DNA of 64,000 nt from Escherichia coli (GCF_016026235.1 NZ_CP065613.1), one strand, 5' to 3'. Numbered from the stretch's first letter, positions 3,513-42,924 are shown. Numbers and translations: made by a program. Notes: generated from the sequence alone by a model not told the origin.

Positions 3513-4475
3513 ATGCGTCAGACTAAAACCGGTATCCTGCTGGCAAACCTGGGTACGCCCGATGCCCCCACACCTGAAGCGGTAAAACGCTATCTGAAAC
3601 AATTTTTAAGCGACAGACGCGTGGTTGATACCCCACGGTTGTTATGGTGGCCGTTGCTGCGCGGCGTGATTTTGCCGCTGCGCTCGCCGCGTGTGGCGAA
3701 GCTGTACGCCTCGGTCTGGATGGAAGACGGCTCGCCGCTGATGGTTTACAGCCGCCAGCAACAGCAGGCGTTGGCACAACGTTTACCGGATACGCCCGTA
3801 GCGCTGGGCATGAGCTACGGCTCGCCATCACTGGAAAGCGCCGTCGATGAACTCCTGGCAGAGCATGTAGATCATATTGTGGTGCTGCCGCTTTATCCGC
3901 AATTCTCCTGTTCTACGGTCGGTGCGGTATGGGATGAACTGGCACGCATTCTGGCGCGCAAACGTAGCATTCCGGGGATATCGTTTATTCGTGATTACGC
4001 CGATAACCACGATTACATTAATGCACTGGCGAACAGCGTACGCGCTTCTTTTGCCAAACATGGCGAACCGGATCTGCTGCTGCTCTCTTATCATGGCATT
4101 CCCCAGCGTTATGCAGATGAAGGCGATGATTACCCGCAACGTTGCCGCACAACGACTCGTGAACTGGCTTCCGCATTGGGGATGGCACCGGAAAAAGTGA
4201 TGATGACCTTTCAGTCGCGCTTTGGTCGGGAACCCTGGCTGATGCCTTATACCGACGAAACGCTGAAAATGCTCGGAGAAAAAGGCGTAGGTCATATTCA
4301 GGTGATGTGCCCGGGCTTTGCTGCGGATTGTCTGGAGACGCTGGAAGAGATTGCCGAGCAAAACCGTGAGGTCTTCCTCGGTGCCGGCGGGAAAAAATAT
4401 GAATATATTCCGGCGCTTAATGCCACGCCGGAACATATCGAAATGATGGCTAATCTTGTTGCCGCGTATCGCTAA
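3513..4475 (+). CDS. hemH: Ferrochelatase
   Basis: 320-aa ORF recognised as E. coli HemH. Confidence 0.95.
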
Positions 4476-5431
4476 AGCTGAGCGGTAAAGAACTGAGCGC
4501 CGTCGCGAAGAGCCTCGTCGGCGGTTTTCATCATCCGTGAATAATGCAAAAAGGCGTGCAGCGTGCCTGGGTAGAGTTTGAACTCACAGGGCTGCTGATG
4601 CGCCGCTAACGTCTGGTAAAGCAGACGGCTGTCATCCAGCAGCGGATCGAACTCCGCCCCGGCAATAAAACAGGGCGGAACTTCGCGAGTGAGATCATTA
4701 TTAAACAGACAGTAATACGGCGACTCGCGGTCCGCGTCGTTGCTTAAATACGCCTCTTCATACATCTGCAAATCCTGTTGCGTTAAGCCATCCCAGACAC
4801 CGCCCAACAGACGACGAGTCACGGAATCCCGTAATCCGTAAAGCCCATACCACAGCAAAACACCCGCAATTTTACCGCAATCGATCTGTTTATCACGCAA
4901 CCACAACGCACTGGCGAGCGCCAGCATGGCACCTGCGGAATCACCGGCAAAGCCAATGCGGGACATATTGATTTGATAATCCTCCGCCTGTTGGTGGAAA
5001 TGACAACAAGCAGCCACAATTTCCTCTATCGCTTGCGGAAAACGTGCTTCAGGTGAAAGGGTGTAATCAATACCAATCACCGTACATTGGCTGTAGCTTG
5101 CCAGCAGGCGCATGATGCGATCGTGGGTATCGAGATTGCCGAGAATAAAACCGCCTCCATGCAAATAAAATAGCGTCGCTGGGCTATCTGGCTGCGGACA
5201 AAAGAGACGTGTTTCCACCTGCCCATATTTTGTTGGAACCATGTAAGCTCTGGTTGCCATTTCTGGAGCGCCCGCATTCCAGAATCGGCGCTCAAGCGTG
5301 TAATACTGTCGTTGCTCAGCAATCGTTCCCGTTGCGGGCCAGGGCGGTAAATCAGGCTGAAGAGTATTCACAACGGTCTTCATTTCAGCAGAAATAAGGT
5401 CCAGAACAGGTAATTTGTTTTCCGGCTTCAT
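4472..5431 (-). CDS. aes: Acetyl esterase (alpha/beta hydrolase, HSL family)
   Basis: 319-aa ORF with HGGG and GDSAG esterase motifs; its 3' end overlaps the hemH stop by 4 bp (convergent). Confidence 0.93.
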
Positions 5432-5582
5432 ACAAAAACTCCTTTCAAATTACGTCATTGTAAGGAACCACTGCCATGAAAATGCGATCCCGCCTGCTGA
5501 TATTGAAACTGGCTGCGTCTCGCGCGCTCCCGTCAGATTGTGTTAACATTCGCCGCTCAGTTAACCACCCGTAAAAACAACC

Positions 5583-6887
5583 ATGAAATTTCCCGGTAAA
5601 CGTAAATCCAAACATTACTTCCCCGTAAATGCACGCGATCCGCTGCTTCAGCAATTCCAGCCAGAAAACGAAACCAGCGCCGCCTGGGTCGTAGGTATTG
5701 ACCAGACGCTGGTCGATATTGAAGCGAAAGTGGATGATGAATTCATTGAGCGTTATGGATTAAGCGCCGGGCATTCACTGGTGATTGAGGATGACGTAGC
5801 CGAAGCGCTTTATCAGGAACTAAAACAGAAAAACCTGATTACCCATCAGTTTGCGGGTGGCACTATTGGTAACACCATGCACAACTACTCGGTGCTCGCG
5901 GACGACCGTTCGGTGCTGCTGGGCGTCATGTGCAGCAATATTGAAATTGGCAGCTATGCCTATCGTTACCTGTGTAACACCTCCAGCCGTACCGATCTTA
6001 ACTATCTACAAGGCGTGGATGGCCCGATTGGTCGTTGCTTTACGCTGATTGGCGAGTCCGGGGAACGTACCTTTGCTATCAGCCCTGGCCACATGAACCA
6101 GCTGCGGGCTGAAAGTATTCCGGAAGATGTGATTGCCGGAGCCTCGGCTCTGGTTCTCACCTCTTATCTGGTGCGTTGCAAGCCGGGTGAACCCATGCCG
6201 GAAGCAACCATGAAAGCCATTGAGTACGCGAAGAAATATAACGTACCGGTGGTGCTGACGCTGGGAACTAAGTTTGTCATTGCCGAGAATCCGCAGTGGT
6301 GGCAGCAATTCCTCAAAGACCACGTCTCTATCCTTGCGATGAACGAAGATGAAGCCGAAGCGTTGACCGGAGAAAGCGATCCGTTGTTAGCATCTGACAA
6401 GGCACTGGACTGGGTTGATCTGGTGCTGTGCACCGCAGGGCCAATCGGCTTGTATATGGCGGGCTTTACCGAAGACGAAGCGAAACGTAAAACCCAGCAT
6501 CCGCTGCTGCCGGGCGCTATAGCCGAATTCAACCAGTATGAGTTTAGCCGCGCCATGCGCCACAAGGATTGCCAGAATCCGCTGCGTGTCTATTCGCACA
6601 TTGCGCCGTACATGGGCGGGCCGGAAAAAATCATGAACACCAACGGAGCAGGGGATGGCGCACTGGCAGCGTTGCTGCATGACATTACCGCCAACAGCTA
6701 CCACCGTAGCAACGTACCAAACTCCAGCAAACATAAATTCACCTGGTTAACTTATTCATCGTTAGCCCAGGTATGTAAATATGCTAACCGTGTGAGCTAT
6801 CAGGTACTGAACCAGCATTCACCTCGTTTAACGCGCGGCTTGCCGGAGCGTGAAGACAGCCTGGAAGAGTCTTACTGGGATCGTTAA
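5583..6887 (+). CDS. gsk: Inosine-guanosine kinase
   Basis: 434-aa ORF recognised as Gsk (PfkB-type sugar kinase fold). Confidence 0.95.
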   Translation: MKFPGKRKSKHYFPVNARDPLLQQFQPENETSAAWVVGIDQTLVDIEAKVDDEFIERYGLSAGHSLVIEDDVAEALYQELKQKNLITHQFAGGTIGNTMHNYSVLADDRSVLLGVMCSNIEIGSYAYRYLCNTSSRTDLNYLQGVDGPIGRCFTLIGESGERTFAISPGHMNQLRAESIPEDVIAGASALVLTSYLVRCKPGEPMPEATMKAIEYAKKYNVPVVLTLGTKFVIAENPQWWQQFLKDHVSILAMNEDEAEALTGESDPLLASDKALDWVDLVLCTAGPIGLYMAGFTEDEAKRKTQHPLLPGAIAEFNQYEFSRAMRHKDCQNPLRVYSHIAPYMGGPEKIMNTNGAGDGALAALLHDITANSYHRSNVPNSSKHKFTWLTYSSLAQVCKYANRVSYQVLNQHSPRLTRGLPEREDSLEESYWDR

Positions 6888-6901
6888 GTTATCGTCGGTT
6901 C

Positions 6902-6985
6902 GTAGGCCAGCTAAGGCGTTCACGCCGCATCTGGCATTTTGCTCTCAATGCCTGATGCGACGCTGGCGCGTCTTATCAGGCCTAC
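6902..6985. repeat. REP/BIME palindromic units (two, opposite orientation)
   Basis: gcctgatgcgacgctggcgcgtcttatcaggcctac and a degenerate inverse copy between convergent gsk and ybaL. Confidence 0.85.
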
Positions 6986-7016
6986 ATATCCGCGCCTATT
7001 ATCCGGCAACCACCGT

Positions 7017-8693
7017 TTACCCCGTCACCACTTCACCCGCCGGTGGCGTTTCCAGCAGTTCCAGCATAGTACGGGCAATTTCACGCTCGCCCATCACTAC
7101 CTGATTCGCACCACGTTCGGTGATATACGCCACTTCATCGTCATAATGGGCGCGGGCAATAATCTCAATATCCGGATTTTTCGCGCGGGCAGATGCCACA
7201 ATCTCACCCGCTTCATAACCGTTGGGGATCGTCAGGATCAGCCATTTTGCACATTCCAGATGCGCCAGTTGCATAATTTCTTCGTTCGCTGCATTGCCCA
7301 ATACTGCGCGGACCCCGCGCTCTCGCAGCTCATCAACACGGGTTCGTGACGTCTCAATCACCACCAGCGGAATATCAGAGGCGAGCAATTTCTCCCCCAG
7401 CAGGCTGCCTACACGACCGTAACCCACCAATAGCGCATGGTTGCAAATATCCACTGGGATCTGCTTCTCTTCTTCGATTGCCTCTTCCAGCGTCTGCTCT
7501 TCCAGCGTTTCGGTCTTCGCCAGATATTTCTCCAGCAGCGCAAACAGGACCGGATTGAGCATAATCGACAAAATCGCACCTGCCAGTACCAGGTTCTGCC
7601 CGGCTTGCGGCAACAGATCCAGCGCCATGCCCAGTCCCGCCAGGATAAACGCGAACTCACCAATTTGCGCCAGGCTGGCGGCGATAGTTAATGCCGTACG
7701 TTGGGAGTGACCAAACAGTCGCACCAGGAAAAATGCGGCTAACGACTTACCAAACAGAATAATCGCCAGCGTCGCCAGCACTGCCAGCGGTTGCTGAATC
7801 AGAATTAACGGATCAAACAACATCCCGACGGAGACAAAAAACAGCACCGCAAACGCGTCGCGCAATGGCAGCGTATCGTGGGCGGCACGGTGACTCAGTT
7901 CAGACTCGTTCAGTACCATCCCGGCAAAGAACGCACCGAGTGCAAAGGAGACATCAAACAGCTCTACCGCACCAAAGGCAATCCCTAACGCCAGCGCCAG
8001 CACCGACAGGGTAAACAGCTCGCGAGAACCGGTTGCCGCGCTGCGTGCCATAATCCACGGCACCAGACGGCGACCTACCAGCATCATAATGGCGATAAAC
8101 GCGATCACTTTGCCGATGGTGATCCCCATATCGACTGCAAGAGTGGCAAAGCCCACATCGCCCTGTTCCATCATTCCTGCCACTGCGGGCAGCAACACCA
8201 GCGTCAGAACCATTACCAGGTCTTCCACAATCAACCAACCGATGGCGATTTGCCCACGCTGACTGTCAATTAATTGCCGTTCTTCAAGTGCGCGCAGTAA
8301 CACCACGGTACTGGCGGTGGAAAGACATAAACCGAACACGATACCGGTCATTAACGACCAGCCCAGCACGGCAGAGAGCGCCATACCCAGCAGCGTCGCC
8401 ACGGCTATCTGGGCGATCGCACCGGGAATGGCGATGGCCTTTACCGCCATCAAATCCTTCAGCGAAAAGTGCAGACCCACGCCAAACATCAACAGAATGA
8501 CGCCCAGTTCAGCCAGTTCCGGCGCAAGCTTGGTATCGGCAACAAAGCCCGGAGTGAATGGTCCTGCCAGCACACCCGCTAACAGATATCCCACCAGAGG
8601 AGAAATACGTAGTTTATTGGCCAGCATGCCGAGGATAAAGGCGAGCACAAGGCCGCCAACAATGGTGGTGATAAGCGGGGTGGCGTGATGCAT
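7017..8693 (-). CDS. ybaL: CPA2-family K+/H+ antiporter with C-terminal TrkA-N (RCK) domain
   Basis: 558-aa ORF, polytopic membrane N-terminus plus GxGxxG Rossmann C-terminus; recognised as YbaL (KefB-like). Confidence 0.9.
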   Translation of the reverse strand: MHHATPLITTIVGGLVLAFILGMLANKLRISPLVGYLLAGVLAGPFTPGFVADTKLAPELAELGVILLMFGVGLHFSLKDLMAVKAIAIPGAIAQIAVATLLGMALSAVLGWSLMTGIVFGLCLSTASTVVLLRALEERQLIDSQRGQIAIGWLIVEDLVMVLTLVLLPAVAGMMEQGDVGFATLAVDMGITIGKVIAFIAIMMLVGRRLVPWIMARSAATGSRELFTLSVLALALGIAFGAVELFDVSFALGAFFAGMVLNESELSHRAAHDTLPLRDAFAVLFFVSVGMLFDPLILIQQPLAVLATLAIILFGKSLAAFFLVRLFGHSQRTALTIAASLAQIGEFAFILAGLGMALDLLPQAGQNLVLAGAILSIMLNPVLFALLEKYLAKTETLEEQTLEEAIEEEKQIPVDICNHALLVGYGRVGSLLGEKLLASDIPLVVIETSRTRVDELRERGVRAVLGNAANEEIMQLAHLECAKWLILTIPNGYEAGEIVASARAKNPDIEIIARAHYDDEVAYITERGANQVVMGEREIARTMLELLETPPAGEVVTG

Positions 8694-14015: not shown

Positions 14016-14037
14016 GGCCAAAACATCGCTTCATCTC

Positions 14038-14275
<238 letters not shown>

Positions 14276-14330: not shown

Positions 14331-16835
14331 TTATTCCTTCGGTTTAAACCGCAGCAACCGGTTGGCGTTACTCACTACGGTAATCGACGAGAGCGCCATT
14401 GCCGCTCCGGCAACTACCGGGTTAAGCAGTGTTCCAGTAAACGGCCACAAAATACCGGCGGCGACCGGAATACCGATACTGTTGTAGATAAACGCGCCGA
14501 GCAGGTTCTGCTTCATGTTGCGCAGCGTTGCGCGGGAAATAGCGAGCGCATCCGCAACGCCCATCAGGCTATGGCGCATCAGGGTAATCGCCGCGGTTTC
14601 AATAGCAACATCACTGCCGCCACCCATCGCAATGCCGACATCCGCCTGAGCCAGCGCTGGCGCGTCGTTAATGCCGTCGCCCACCATTGCCACCTGACGT
14701 CCTTCACTTTGCAGGCGTTTAATCGCTTCGGCTTTACCGTCCGGCAGCACCCCGGCTATCACCTCATCAATCCCTGCTTCTTTGGCGATTGCATTGGCGG
14801 TGGTTGGGTTATCCCCGGTCAACATCACCAGACGATATCCCGCTTTATGCAGGCGTTGCAGCGCCGCCACGCTATCACTACGCAATGGATCGCGTACAGC
14901 CAGCAGGGCTACCGCTTTCCCGTCAACCGCCAGCAGCACAGGCGTTGCCCCTTGCGATGCCTGAGCAGTAATCTCCGCTTCGATAGCTTTGGTATCAACC
15001 TGTTGCTCATTTAACAACGCCTGATTACCCAGCAATAACGCATGACCTTCTGCTTCACCGCTCACGCCCAGCCCGCGCAATGTGCGGAAATCGTTGACCT
15101 GCGGCAGCTGCATATCGCCTGCTTTATCGAGGATCGCTCGTGCCAGCGGATGGCTGGAACCTTGCTCCAGCGCCGCCGCCAGACGCAATGCTTGCGCTTC
15201 ATCAACATCAGCAAATGTTTTTACTGCGACAACCTGCGGCTTCCCTTCGGTCAGCGTCCCGGTTTTATCGAACACTACGGTATCGAGTGTACTGGCGCGT
15301 TGCAGCGCGTCGGCGTCCCGCACCAGCACGCCAAACTCAGCCGCCCGCCCGACGCCGGAAATAATCGACATTGGCGTCGCCAGCCCCAGCGCACACGGAC
15401 AGGCAATAATCAGCACCGTGGTGGCTATCACCAGGGTATAGACAATCTGCGGTGCCGGACCAAAGAAATACCAGATTGCTGCACTGATCAGCGCAATCAC
15501 CACTACTACCGGCACAAATACGGCTGAGATTTTATCCGCCAGCTGACCGATTTCTGGCTTGCTGCTCTGGGCCTGGCGCACCATGCGAATGATCCGTGAC
15601 AGCGTGGTATGGCTGCCAACCGCACTGGCACGAAACAGCACACTGCCGTCCTGTACCACTGTCCCGGCATGGACGCTATCGCCTTCGCCTTTTTGCTGCG
15701 GGATTGGTTCGCCCGTCAGCATCGCTTCATCCAGCCATGCTTCGCCCTGGGTAATCTCACCATCTACCGGCACGCGATCGCCGGTCGTCAGGCGCAGTAA
15801 CATCCCAGGCTGAACTTCCGCCAGCGGCACGCTTTTTTCACCCTCTGCGGTGACCACTCGCGCCGTCGGTGGGGTTAAATCGAGTAATTTCTCCAGCGCC
15901 TTAGAAGAACGCTGACGCGCGCGCGCTTCCAGCATATGGCCGAGATTAATCAGACCGATAATCATCGCACTGGCTTCATAGTAAAGATGCCGCGCTTCCA
16001 TCGGGAACCACTGCGGCCACAGGTTGACGCTCATCGAATAGAGCCACGCCACACCCGTACCCAGCGCCACCAGCGTATCCATCGTCGCCGCACCGTTCAG
16101 CAGGCTTTTCCACGCGCTGCGGTAAAAATGGCCGCCGGCGAAAACCATTACCGCCAGGGTTATCAGGCCGATAACTAACCACAAGCTGCGGTTGTCAGCG
16201 GTGACCATCATGTTATCGCCGATCATCCCCCAGACCATTACCGGGATACCCACAGCCAGTGCAACAATTGCCTGCCAGCGGAAGCGCTTCATCGTAGCTA
16301 CGGCGGTTTCTTGCTGGCGCTCGCGGCGTTTAGCGTCATCTTCAATCGCTTCCGCACCGTAGCCCGCTTTTTCCACCGCCTGCACTAAATCTTGTGGGGA
16401 GGCACTGCCCATCACCAGCGCAGTACGCTCCGCCAGGTTTACCCGTGCCTGAGTGACGCCCGGTACGCTTTGCAGCGCATTTTGTACGCGGGTGACACAG
16501 CTGGCGCAGCTCATGCCGCTCAGCAGCAACTGCTGGCTGTCATCGTCATCGGCGGTCGCTGCCGGAAGCGCCTCAGAAACCGCTGTCAGTGCTTCCGACG
16601 GGATTGATGACTCCGCCAGCGGTTTAGCCTTTGGGTGGCTTACAGATGCGTCATAACCCGCTTGTTTGATGGTTTCGATCAGCTGTTCTGCACTGGCAGT
16701 CCCGGTAACGTGCGCTTCAGTGATAGACACATCCGCTTGTTCCACATCCGGGCGCTGTTCGAGACTTTCTTTCACGCGTTTAACGCAGTGACCGCAGGAC
16801 AGGCCGTCCAGGGTCAGGTCGATAGTTTGTGACAT
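14331..16835 (-). CDS. copA: Cu(I)-exporting P1B-type ATPase
   Basis: 834-aa ORF with two N-terminal GxxCxxC metal-binding domains, CPC, DKTGT and GDGxND motifs. Confidence 0.97.
16629..16635 (-). other. copA: Slippery heptamer C_CCA_AAG inside copA (programmed -1 frameshift site yielding the CopA(Z) chaperone)
   Basis: Heptamer at codons H-P-K about 69 codons into copA; a -1 shift reads CCC AAA GGC TAA, terminating immediately; matches the described copA frameshift as I recall it. Confidence 0.6.
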
Positions 16836-19324: not shown

Positions 19325-19448
19325 CATCTCTCTGTGCGCAGTACTTCCTGTATTATTGTGGTGGCGGTCGATATTCGCACTGGCAAAAAAACGTGCTTGA
19401 ATATCTGTTGAAACCCTTTAACAAAGCACAGGAGGCGTTGCGCGAACG

Positions 19449-19856
19449 ATGAACATCAGCGATGTAGCAAAAATTACCGGCCTGACCAGCAAAGCCATTC
19501 GCTTCTATGAAGAGAAGGGGCTGGTGACGCCGCCGATGCGCAGCGAAAACGGTTATCGCACCTACACGCAGCAGCATCTCAACGAACTGACCTTACTGCG
19601 CCAGGCACGGCAGGTGGGCTTTAACCTGGAAGAGAGCGGCGAGCTGGTGAATCTGTTTAACGACCCGCAGCGGCACAGCGCCGACGTCAAACGGCGCACG
19701 CTGGAGAAGGTGGCGGAGATCGAACGACACATTGAGGAGCTGCAATCCATGCGCGACCAGCTGCTGGCACTGGCGAATGCCTGCCCTGGCGATGACAGCG
19801 CCGACTGCCCGATTATCGAAAATCTCTCCGGCTGCTGTCATCATCGGGCAGGGTGA
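19449..19856 (+). CDS. cueR: Cu-responsive MerR-family transcriptional regulator
   Basis: 135-aa ORF with N-terminal HTH and C-terminal CxxxxxxxC metal-binding loop. Confidence 0.95.
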
Positions 19857-20315
19857 TTAAGACGAGACGGCTCGGATATGTAGGGTTATCCCTTCTATCG
19901 CAATGACTTCAACATGCGTACCTGCACCGAGATCCTCGCTGGCGCTGACAGGCCATGAACTGTCACCGACGCGCATATGACCGCGCCCGTTGACCAGCGG
20001 AGATTCCAGCACAAAACGTCGGCCAATCAGCTGCTGCCCGCGCTGGTTTAAATGACTGTCGCTGTGCTTTTGTTCGCGCACCCGCCGCGACAACCATTTC
20101 CACCACAGCCAGGCGGCGAGCAGCGTCAGGACGGCAAACATCACCCCTTGCCACTCCCAACCCAGCGGCACCAGCCAGACCACCAGGCCGGTAATCACCG
20201 CTGCCACGCCACTCCACAACAAATAACCATTTCCGCCCAGCATCTCGGCTGCCAGCAGCAAACCGCCGAGACTGAGCCAGAAAATATGTGGATGAACGAC
20301 CATTAACTCCATCAT
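19857..20315 (-). CDS. ybbJ: NfeD-family membrane protein
   Basis: 152-aa ORF with a membrane N-terminus and OB-fold C-terminus; overlaps the qmcA stop by 4 bp. Confidence 0.85.
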
Positions 20316-21229
20316 GGCTGAGTCCGTTTGTTGGCGCTGTCTTTCACCAGCTCAGCAATCCCGGCAATCGACCCCATCAGGCTGCTGGCCTCTAATGGCA
20401 TCATCACCACTTTGCTGTTACTGGACGAACCGATCTGCTGTAACGCTTCGGTGTATTTCTGCGCTACGAAGTAGTTCACCGCCTGAATATCACCGGAGGC
20501 GATGGCTTCAGACACCATTTTGGTGGCGCGGGCTTCTGCTTCAGCGGAACGTTCACGCGCTTCAGCCTGTAAAAACGCCGACTGACGTTCGCCTTCCGCT
20601 TTCAGGATTTGCGACTGTTTTTCACCTTCGGCTTTGAGGATTTCCGCCTGACGGATCCCTTCCGCTTCAAGAATGTAAGCGCGTTTGGTACGTTCCGCTT
20701 TCATCTGCGCGTTCATTGAAGAGATAAGCTCTGCCGGTGGGCGCACGTCGCGAATTTCAATACGGGTGACTTTAATCCCCCACGGGTTAGTGGCTTCATC
20801 GACAATACGCAGCAGGCGTGAGTTGATGCTGTCGCGCTGAGAGAGCATTTCGTCAAGTTCCATTGAACCCAGCACGGTACGGATGTTAGTCATGGTCAGG
20901 TTGATGATCGCCAGCTCCAGATTGCTGACTTCATAAGCCGCGCGCGGCGCATCAATCACCTGAATAAAGCACACGGCGTCGATGGTAACGTTGGCGTTAT
21001 CTTTCGAGATAACTTCCTGGGAAGGGATATCGAGCACTTGCTCCATCATATTGATCTTGCGACCAATGCGATCCATAAACGGCACCACCAGACTGAGCCC
21101 CGGCTGTAACGTTTTGGTATAGCGACCAAAACGTTCTACCGTCCATTGATAGCCCTGCGGCACGATTTTGACGCCCGCGCCGACAATGACCAGCGCGACA
21201 AAAATGAGAATCGGGATAAAGATAAGCAT
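20312..21229 (-). CDS. qmcA: SPFH/stomatin-family membrane protease-modulator
   Basis: 305-aa ORF with an N-terminal TM segment and SPFH domain. Confidence 0.9.
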
Positions 21230-24605: not shown

Positions 24606-25221
24606 GATTTACTAAAGGCTGCAACTGCTTCGCCATCCAGTCGGCAATAAACGGCTGGGCGTCGTGGTTGGGATGAATACCGTCATCCTGCATCCATTGT
24701 GGCTTGAGGTAGACCTCTTCCATAAAAAAGGGCAGCAGCGGAACATCAAACTCTTTGGCGAGTTTGGGGTAAATGGCGCTAAAGGCTTCATTATAACGGC
24801 GACCATAGTTTGCAGGCAGACGTATTTGCATTAACAATGGTTCAGCGTTGGCGGCTTTGACATCCTGCAAAATCTGGCGCAGCGTTTGCTCGGTTTGCTG
24901 TGGCTGAAAACCACGCAAACCGTCATTGCCGCCCAGTTCAACCAGCACCCAGCGCGGCTGATGCTGTTTCAGCAGAGCCGGAAGGCGCGCCAGCCCTTGT
25001 TGCGAAGTGTCGCCGCTGATGCTGGCATTAACTACCGACGTTTTACTCTGCCACTTATCATTCAACAAGGCAGGCCAGGCCGCGCTGGCAGACATTCGAT
25101 ACCCAGCGCTCAGGCTATCACCCAGAATCAATAACGTGTCCGCTGCGGCGGCACGGAAGGTTAACAGGACCAGGAACAGGAAGGGCAAATGCCAGCGGAA
25201 AACATTGTTGAAGTTCATCAT
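24595..25221 (-). CDS. tesA: Acyl-CoA thioesterase I / lysophospholipase L1 (SGNH hydrolase, periplasmic)
   Basis: 208-aa ORF from MMNFNN with signal peptide and GDSLS motif; overlaps the ybbO start region. Confidence 0.9.
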   Translation of the reverse strand: MMNFNNVFRWHLPFLFLVLLTFRAAAADTLLILGDSLSAGYRMSASAAWPALLNDKWQSKTSVVNASISGDTSQQGLARLPALLKQHQPRWVLVELGGNDGLRGFQPQQTEQTLRQILQDVKAANAEPLLMQIRLPANYGRRYNEAFSAIYPKLAKEFDVPLLPFFMEEVYLKPQWMQDDGIHPNHDAQPFIADWMAKQLQPLVNHDS

Positions 25222-28300: not shown

Positions 28301-28603
<303 letters not shown>

Positions 28604-42147: not shown

Positions 42148-42156
42148 TGAATTTAC
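42148..42156. repeat. Target-site duplication TGAATTTAC (left) of the IS1 insertion
   Basis: Identical 9-mer at 42925-42933 directly flanking the other IS1 end. Confidence 0.9.
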
Positions 42157-42211
42157 GGTAATGCTGCCAACTTACTGATTTAGTGTATGATGGTGATTTT
42201 AAGGTGCTTGC

Positions 42212-42487
42212 GTGGCTTCCATTTCCATCAGATGTCCTTCCTGCTCCGCTACTGAAGGCGTGGTGCGTAACGGCAAAAGCACTGCCGGACATCAGCGCTA
42301 TCTCTGCTCTCATTGCCGTAAAACATGGCAACTACAGTTCACTTACACCGCCTCTCAGCCCGGTACGCACCAGAAAATCATTGATATGGCCATGAATGGC
42401 GTCGGATGTCGCGCCAGTGCACGCATTATGGGCGTTGGCCTCAACACGGTTTTACGTCACTTAAAAAACTCAGGCCGCAGTCGGTAA
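42212..42487 (+). CDS. insA: IS1 InsA (transposition inhibitor / N-terminal part of transposase)
   Basis: 91-aa ORF, GTG start, zinc-finger CxxC...CxxC and HTH; recognised as InsA with several substitutions relative to the K-12 copies as I recall them. Confidence 0.9.
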
Positions 42488-42909
42488 CCTCGCGCATACA
42501 GCCGGGCAGTGACGTCATCGTCTGCGCTGAAATGGACGAACAGTGGGGCTACGTCGGTGCTAAATCACGTCAGCGCTGGCTGTTTTACGCGTATGACAGG
42601 ATACGGAGGACGGTTGTGGCGCACGTCTTCGGTGAACGCACTCTGGCCACACTGGAGCGTCTTCTGAGCCTGCTGTCGGCCTTTGAGGTCGTGGTATAGA
42701 TGACGGATGGCTGGCCGCTGTATGAATCACGCCTGAAGGGAAAGCTGCACGTTATCAGCAAGCGTTACACTCAGCGCATTGAGCGACATAATCTGAATCT
42801 GAGACAACATCTGGCAAGGCTGGGACGGAAGTTACTGTCGTTCTCAAAATCGGTGGAGTTGCATGACAAGGTCATCGGGCATTATCTGAACATAAAACAC
42901 TATCAGTAA
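42406..42909 (+). pseudogene. insB: IS1 insB frame interrupted by an in-frame amber codon (TAG at 42697-42699)
   Basis: The -1 frame relative to insA is open from 42406 but stops at TAG 42697-42699 (...AFEVVV* then MTDGW...); canonical IS1 has TGG (Trp) there as I recall. Confidence 0.7.
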
Positions 42910-42924
42910 GTTGGAGTCATTACC

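Follow-up and report, generated by a model that had tools for sequence, protein, structure and literature searches.

The analyzed stretch of Escherichia coli DNA (GCF_016026235.1, NZ_CP065613.1; 64,000 nucleotides, referred to below as the window) contains two convergent genes, cueR and ybbJ, whose stop codons directly abut, and a second pair, hemH and aes, with a similar arrangement. This raises the question of whether such tight junctions force the opposing transcripts to overlap and, if so, whether the overlap serves mutual antisense regulation, as the first-pass annotation had proposed. Overall, the arrangement of both pairs is real, ordinary, and already known. The coordinates of the features discussed below are given in Table 1.

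Table 1. Genes and predicted transcript-end features at the hemH/aes and cueR/ybbJ junctions (positions in the window).
Feature	Position	Strand	Remarks
hemH CDS (ferrochelatase)	3513..4475	+	stop TAA at 4473-4475
aes CDS (acetyl esterase)	4472..5431	-	stop TAG, reads CTA at 4472-4474
aes intrinsic terminator	4392..4439	-	in the last ~25 codons of hemH; followed by UUCAUAUUUUUU
hemH candidate intrinsic terminator	4500..4532	+	in the last codons of aes; followed by UUUUCAUC
cueR CDS	19449..19856	+	135 aa, Cu(I)-responsive MerR-family regulator; ORF list and RefSeq
ybbJ CDS	19857..20315	-	152 aa, NfeD family; stop TAA, reads TTA at 19857-19859
qmcA	20312..21229	-	SPFH domain; upstream of ybbJ, 4-bp same-strand overlap
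Weak hairpin downstream of cueR	20036..20075 (hairpin 20036-20067)	+	-7.5 kcal/mol; precedes UUUUGUUC; offset of 180-219 nt from the cueR stop
Weak hairpin downstream of ybbJ	19467..19491 (hairpin 19491-19475)	-	-6.4 kcal/mol; precedes AUUUUUGC; offset of ~366-390 nt from the ybbJ stop
Putative Rho-utilization tract	20097..20256	+	C-rich, G-poor, C/G 1.9-3.0; 241-400 nt past the cueR stop, antisense to ybbJ
28-nt patch of the abutting (K-12-type) allele	19857..19884	-	TTAAGACGAGACGGCTCGGATATGTAGG; ybbJ stop and last 8 codons (LHIRAVSS, then stop)

Across the cueR/ybbJ junction the sequence reads GCA GGG TGA/TTA AGA CGA, with the cueR TGA at 19854-19856 and the complement of the ybbJ TAA at 19857-19859, and the ORF list gives a gap of 0 bp. 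The reported zero spacing is exact to the base, as sequence, ORFs, RefSeq, and the residues of solved proteins agree. Since ORF lists are purely mechanical, we considered that one of the stops might not be a real protein end and the zero gap an illusion of annotation or ORF calling. No point favors this artefact reading, and it has practically no chance of being correct: it is already refuted by the full-length solved proteins, which fit both ends (CueR residues 1-135 in PDB 1Q05, YbbJ residues 1-152 in 8Z5G chain B). CueR matches Pfam MerR_1 and MerR-DNA-bind, and the Pfam NfeD domain of YbbJ (residues 94-148) reaches to within a few residues of the end of the 152-aa protein. RefSeq is concordant over thousands of genomes, and the RefSeq CDS ends of both pairs are identical in a strain whose sequence matches the probe at 100%. 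The gene upstream of ybbJ, qmcA, is handled together with it as a single unit in PMC11619404, and any antisense RNA into cueR would come from transcription of this qmcA-ybbJ unit. On the other side of cueR, the ybaT-cueR spacer (19355-19452, cueR strand) holds a frameshifted, N-terminally truncated pseudogene, a RefSeq 'hypothetical protein', which overlaps the cueR start by 4 bp and is found in all E. coli junction types examined.

At hemH/aes, the tetramer CTAA (4472-4475) is common to both gene ends, and sequence and ORFs confirm the 4-bp convergent overlap that had been noted there. This junction is fixed in E. coli, being present in 5424 of 5426 complete genomes. The aes strand has a GC-rich stem-loop directly before a U tract inside the coding sequence of its partner. 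Its stem (4404-4437) is perfect, comprises 13-15 bp with -20.3 kcal/mol, and is located 33 nt past the aes stop; the U tract is found on one side only, and the 96-nt fold scores z = -2.7 relative to shuffles. On the hemH strand, a GC-rich candidate hairpin (4500-4524, -11.6 kcal/mol) follows 25 nt past the stop. It is followed by four U residues only and a mapped 3' end lies further downstream, so that it may be weak or inactive. The two hairpins are distinct and one-directional, lie ~60 nt apart, and each is within the other gene; a single stem-loop shared by both strands, i.e. an overlapping bidirectional terminator, was not found at this junction. If both hairpins work as terminators, the minimal mRNA overlap would amount to ~138 nt (roughly 4395-4532). 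A divergent hemH/aes allele is carried by 263 E. coli genomes, in which the loss of 13 bp between two direct TAAAG repeats (window 4473-4485; locus L088 478-503) removes the aes stop, resulting in a different Aes C-terminus and a 26-bp CDS overlap with hemH. This allele keeps both embedded hairpins.

Published transcript ends add to this picture. In PMC10687069 (supplementary file 5), MG1655 position 499229 is listed as a plus-strand 3' end of the class 'antisense to aes'; located via its upstream sequence (4637..4688, plus strand), it corresponds to window position 4688, 213 nt past the hemH stop. In addition, a Rho termination region at MG1655 499332 (plus strand), antisense to aes and with a Rho score of 4.07 (PMC7815308, supplementary file 2), falls at window ~4791, about 315 nt into aes. 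The hemH read-through RNA from +241 to +400 is C-rich and G-poor, with a C/G ratio of 1.6-2.2. Part of the hemH transcripts thus read beyond the hairpin, with a 3' end at +213 and Rho-dependent termination near +315.

No credible intrinsic terminator was found at cueR/ybbJ on either strand, apart from two weak sites, and on both strands the first 180 nt past the stop contain no hairpin with a U tract. Likewise, no stem-loop shared by both directions was detected. The two weak hairpins in Table 1 are the sole terminator-like sites downstream of cueR and of ybbJ, the latter being close to the cueR 5' end. Of the 47 species with a tight junction, 17 have a hairpin with a T-run at a similar offset from the cueR stop (192-219 nt). 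We rejected a conserved cueR terminator inside ybbJ because RNAalifold returned zero consensus pairs on 50 aligned sequences and the T-run is explained by conserved E-Q-K codons. The final 75 nt of cueR (19779-19853) contain a long inverted repeat, whose reading as a bidirectional pause hairpin was discarded as well: its arms are two mutually exclusive pairings, the fold is no better than shuffles (z = -1.65), and the repeats lie on the DDS, CPII, CCHH, and HHRAG codons.

The C/G signature of the tract past cueR is the same as that at the published hemH Rho region, and this composition therefore suggests that cueR transcripts might be terminated by Rho inside ybbJ. A search by composition revealed no clear C-rich tract in the ybbJ read-through RNA. 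The supplements of PMC7815308 and PMC10687069 contain no 3' ends for cueR, ybbJ, or qmcA. Head-on polymerase collision is a documented route by which transcripts of convergent pairs end (bioRxiv 10.1101/2022.10.23.513370). Untranslated antisense read-through at cueR/ybbJ would most likely be ended by Rho, with such collisions contributing. Neither junction contains an Rfam family or a known antisense RNA.

A translatable mRNA includes its stop codon and some nucleotides past it. Since these nucleotides are needed in the mRNA, functional transcripts cannot all end before the junction, and with zero intergenic space the transcripts of each pair must overlap. The overlap predicted by the first-pass annotation is borne out by the listing of both pairs in ExcludonFinder and by the hemH-strand 3' end 213 nt inside aes. 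Its further statement that there is no room for terminators held in part: intergenic space is indeed absent, but at hemH/aes terminators are embedded in the coding sequence of the partner. In both pairs, the 3' untranslated end of each mRNA would sit within the coding sequence of the other gene.

Tight convergent junctions are not exceptional. The 10 convergent pairs in the window have gaps of -4, 0, 35, 36, 62, 96, 129, 138, ~416, and 417 bp, as taken from the annotation of a near-identical strain (99.9% identity), relative to which the window has three IS copies fewer and one REP unit more. Convergent CDS overlaps in E. coli were counted as 58 (Lillo and Krakauer 2007, PMC2174442) or 75 (PMC4161906), and the arrangement of cueR/ybbJ and hemH/aes is no rarer than expected. 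Larger convergent gaps in the window are filled by REP/BIME-type elements (Rfam naRNA4) at 6905-6982, 14041-14219, and 28370-28548. The gaps concerned are gsk/ybaL, ybaQ/copA, and dinQ/ybbP, and published 3' ends coincide with REP hairpins in the first two. REP elements are absent from both zero-gap junctions, and strains with an insert between cueR and ybbJ carry REP copies right after ybbJ. At ~14037-14274, the window has one 101-bp REP unit more than strain FDAARGOS_943. Between allE and glxK (42156-42924), it carries a single IS1-like copy that is ~91% identical to the IS1A copies of FDAARGOS_943; by homology, its transposase belongs to the IS1F family and contains an internal stop. In the FDAARGOS_943 annotation, allE is a pseudogene.

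Both pairs have been catalogued. ExcludonFinder (Sanmartin et al., NAR 2025, PMC12288877) includes cueR-ybbJ and hemH-aes in its Table 1 of 165 convergent excludons of MG1655, and the inference of overlap is thus already published. The criterion applied there is an overlap of the transcripts, as defined by RNA-seq, in 50% or more of 58 MG1655 samples, and overlapping terminators were predicted in 146 of the 165 convergent excludons (PMC12288877). When the gap is 0 or -4 bp, expression of both genes is nearly sufficient for the pair to be scored as overlapping. As a class, excludons show higher synteny and less co-expression in single cells, with validation at the class level; validation by p19 dsRNA capture was not feasible for the convergent ones (PMC12288877). 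The same study lists ybbA/tesA as a divergent excludon, and in the window the annotated CDS 5' ends of ybbA (plus strand) and tesA (minus strand) overlap by 30 bp at 25189-25218.

The conservation of the cueR/ybbJ junction within E. coli was examined with a 200-bp probe across it against 5426 complete genomes, and with left-junction probes for the other forms. The abutting junction was intact in 3203 genomes, and in the remainder the probe splits exactly at the junction point; the DNA accommodated there amounts to 0.8-3.4 kb in ~41% of E. coli genomes. In 966 genomes, cueR is followed at 0 bp by what is left of a decayed, frameshifted gene. In 1245 others, a 68-aa ORF follows cueR at 3 bp as the first element of a module that further comprises a lipoprotein, a 338-aa protein with a YadA membrane anchor, and a 120-aa ORF; REP elements and then ybbJ come after the module. 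In O157:H7 strain 4276, the stops of cueR and ybbJ are 2,634 bp apart, with the YadA-anchor protein, the lipoprotein, and two small ORFs between them. The O-island OI-29 of E. coli O157:H7 comprises 2,643 bp and three genes (z0638-z0640, gmrA; Yang et al. 2018, PMC5826968). On the basis of size and gene content, the window junction appears to be an unoccupied OI-29 site; cueR and ybbJ are not named in that study, which inferred four independent gains of the island. The cueR flanks vary on both sides in E. coli: in O157:H7 (locus L005, 1-3361) genes for a type I secretion permease/ATPase and an HlyD-family adaptor replace glsA-ybaT upstream of cueR, with a 4-bp overlap between the adaptor gene and the start of cueR.

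The spacing of the cueR and ybbJ stops was also compared across species, using 80 species-level loci with CueR as the anchor. A tight junction (-14 to +5 bp) was found in 47 of the 80 species; gaps were -4 bp in 30 species, +3 bp in 11, and 0 bp in 3 (Trabulsiella, with TGA/TTA as in the window). Salmonella arizonae has a gap of -9 bp. Another 25 species, among them most Citrobacter and several Kosakonia, Phytobacter, and Siccibacter, have ~2.85-3.05 kb between the genes, and this insert contains a PA5441-family gene (714 aa, NF053584) and a DUF3142 gene (251 aa) on the ybbJ strand. The pair is located at ~5411-8320 in loci L013, L028, L067, and L074. It varies within genera, as C. sedlakii and two Kosakonia species are without it. 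In the other Escherichia, the cueR-ybbJ distance ranges from 112 to 4,865 bp. Whichever gene is the neighbor of cueR, it ends -11 to +3 bp from the cueR stop. The sets found between cueR and ybbJ are unrelated, namely a 409-aa gene, alone or along with the OI-29-type module (Escherichia), the PA5441-DUF3142 pair, or nothing. The tight junction is widespread in Enterobacteriaceae, yet broken in ~41% of E. coli without obvious harm.

For the origin of the abutting allele, one explanation is a deletion scar, in which the Escherichia ancestor had genes between cueR and ybbJ that were removed precisely in the K-12-type lineage. An intact 409-aa gene, which gave no Pfam or NCBIfam match, does abut cueR at 0 bp in every other Escherichia sampled, namely E. 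albertii, E. whittamii, and two further species, and two of these species also have the OI-29-type module. The inserted genes show identities of 82-92%, within the range of the flanking genes. E. coli itself displays nested decay states of 3.36, 2.56, 0.83, and 0 kb, and the window and the decayed gene have in common the pentamer TTAAG that follows the cueR stop. From such comparisons, the occupied state looks old in the genus Escherichia. The ybbJ tail does not fit a scar, however. The last 28 nt of the abutting allele are in frame but only 57% identical to the tail, LIIRAVIA followed by the stop, of all insert-bearing strains and other Escherichia sampled, while the adjacent 120 nt differ from O157 by 0.8% and homology is back exactly at 19885. 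After a plain deletion the old tail should still be in place; this is the case in locus L009, which also keeps 112 bp with a REP element. In the tiny sample available, the window tail is somewhat nearer to Salmonella (17 of 24 codon positions, compared to 10 of 24 for the other tail), and outside Escherichia tight junctions are the rule. We therefore regard a scar as a doubtful origin. Deletion through TTAAG microhomology in particular does not fit the diverged 28-nt tail.

The abutting allele would instead be either an old allele kept beside the occupied one or the product of allelic replacement, and not a simple deletion scar. In a broader form, which we put forward tentatively and at low confidence, the cueR 3' end is a recurrent docking point for accessory genes, the empty allele is an old haplotype or was re-imported by allelic replacement, and OI-29 would predate E. 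coli. We rejected the import of a long divergent tract, as the divergence peak at 19600-19800 also occurs among insert-bearing strains, and only 19857-19884 is thus specific to the abutting allele. In this mid-cueR region (codons ~50-117), nucleotide divergence between strains is 5-10%, compared to ~1-3% in the flanks, and the protein is 98-99% identical. A similar divergence peak is present in copA (~14400-16000).

With regard to function, mutual antisense control of cueR/ybbJ and hemH/aes is possible in principle. In its strongest form, the two pairs would be true excludons: the cueR and qmcA-ybbJ transcripts would repress each other via transcriptional interference and by being cleaved as a duplex by RNase III. 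Copper sensing would thereby be linked to the QmcA/YbbJ membrane-protein system and, in the same way, heme synthesis (hemH) to aes. Both pairs belong to the MG1655 'excludome', a class with higher synteny and rarer co-expression in single cells, although this evidence consists of class-level, single-cell statistics with p19 dsRNA validation not being feasible for convergent pairs, and although the overlap call is almost automatic at a 0-bp gap. The tight junction in 47 of 80 species is also what functional coupling would predict, and if the sole site downstream of ybbJ were used, the ybbJ transcript would be antisense to almost all of cueR. The partner, however, is not conserved: ~41% of E. 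coli genomes have other genes between cueR and ybbJ, as do 25 of 80 species. Since the two genes are kilobases apart in these genomes, a specific coupling is dispensable, and the natural separation weakens the mutual antisense reading. Moreover, no functional link between the partners is known, and known antisense RNA families are absent from the junctions. Mutual repression of this kind is consequently improbable. A candidate antisense promoter in cueR (19841..19812, minus strand; 10 of 12 matches) was dismissed, one such site having been found compared to 1.8 expected by chance.

In our judgment, these are very probably two ordinary compact convergent junctions, with overlapping 3' ends, embedded terminators at hemH/aes, and an ending by Rho or collision at cueR/ybbJ. 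The tight junction would then be the outcome of stop-codon drift and loss of spacer DNA and not a dedicated regulatory device. For biology at large this carries little weight, as back-to-back convergent genes are routine in compact bacterial genomes. In practice, however, the 3' end of cueR, ybbJ, hemH, or aes cannot be deleted or tagged without changing the 3' UTR or the embedded terminator of the partner. Additionally, the E. coli alleles with and without a spacer at cueR/ybbJ provide a natural test of whether the overlap has a regulatory effect.

The two junctions can be compared with several described systems. Four tetramers can close two opposed genes, CTAA, TTAA, CTAG, and TTAG, and a rho-independent terminator lies inside the CDS of the partner in 19 of the 58 E. 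coli overlaps (PMC2174442). The hemH/aes pair resembles these overlaps, with its CTAA interlock and at least one rho-independent terminator in the partner CDS. cueR/ybbJ differs from them in the window genome, where the tetramer interlock is absent and TGA/TTA abut at 0 bp; the 4-bp form is present in 30 of 80 species. Both pairs are similar to convergent excludons in that they are adjacent, on opposite strands, and arranged tail to tail, with overlapping transcripts in the literature. The defining feature of convergent excludons is mutually exclusive expression, whereas cueR-ybbJ and hemH-aes were classed by transcript overlap alone. As far as overlapping bidirectional terminators (Ju et al. 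2019) are described in bioRxiv 10.1101/2022.10.23.513370, both pairs share with them the convergent orientation, the overlapping 3' ends, and likely polymerase collisions; in that description the terminator is a single shared element, in contrast to the two one-directional hairpins of hemH/aes and the absence of any such element at cueR/ybbJ. Finally, the window junction appears to correspond to the unoccupied, K-12-type OI-29 site, an identity based on size, gene content, and locus numbering, and is apparently the insertion point of the island. Four independent gains of OI-29 have been inferred (PMC5826968), whereas E. whittamii and Escherichia sp. E1V33 carry homologs of the module with 85-89% identity. 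The sequence comparison suggests that the OI-29-type module may be older than E. coli, at odds with the four published gains, and that the history of the island would reach back further than published.
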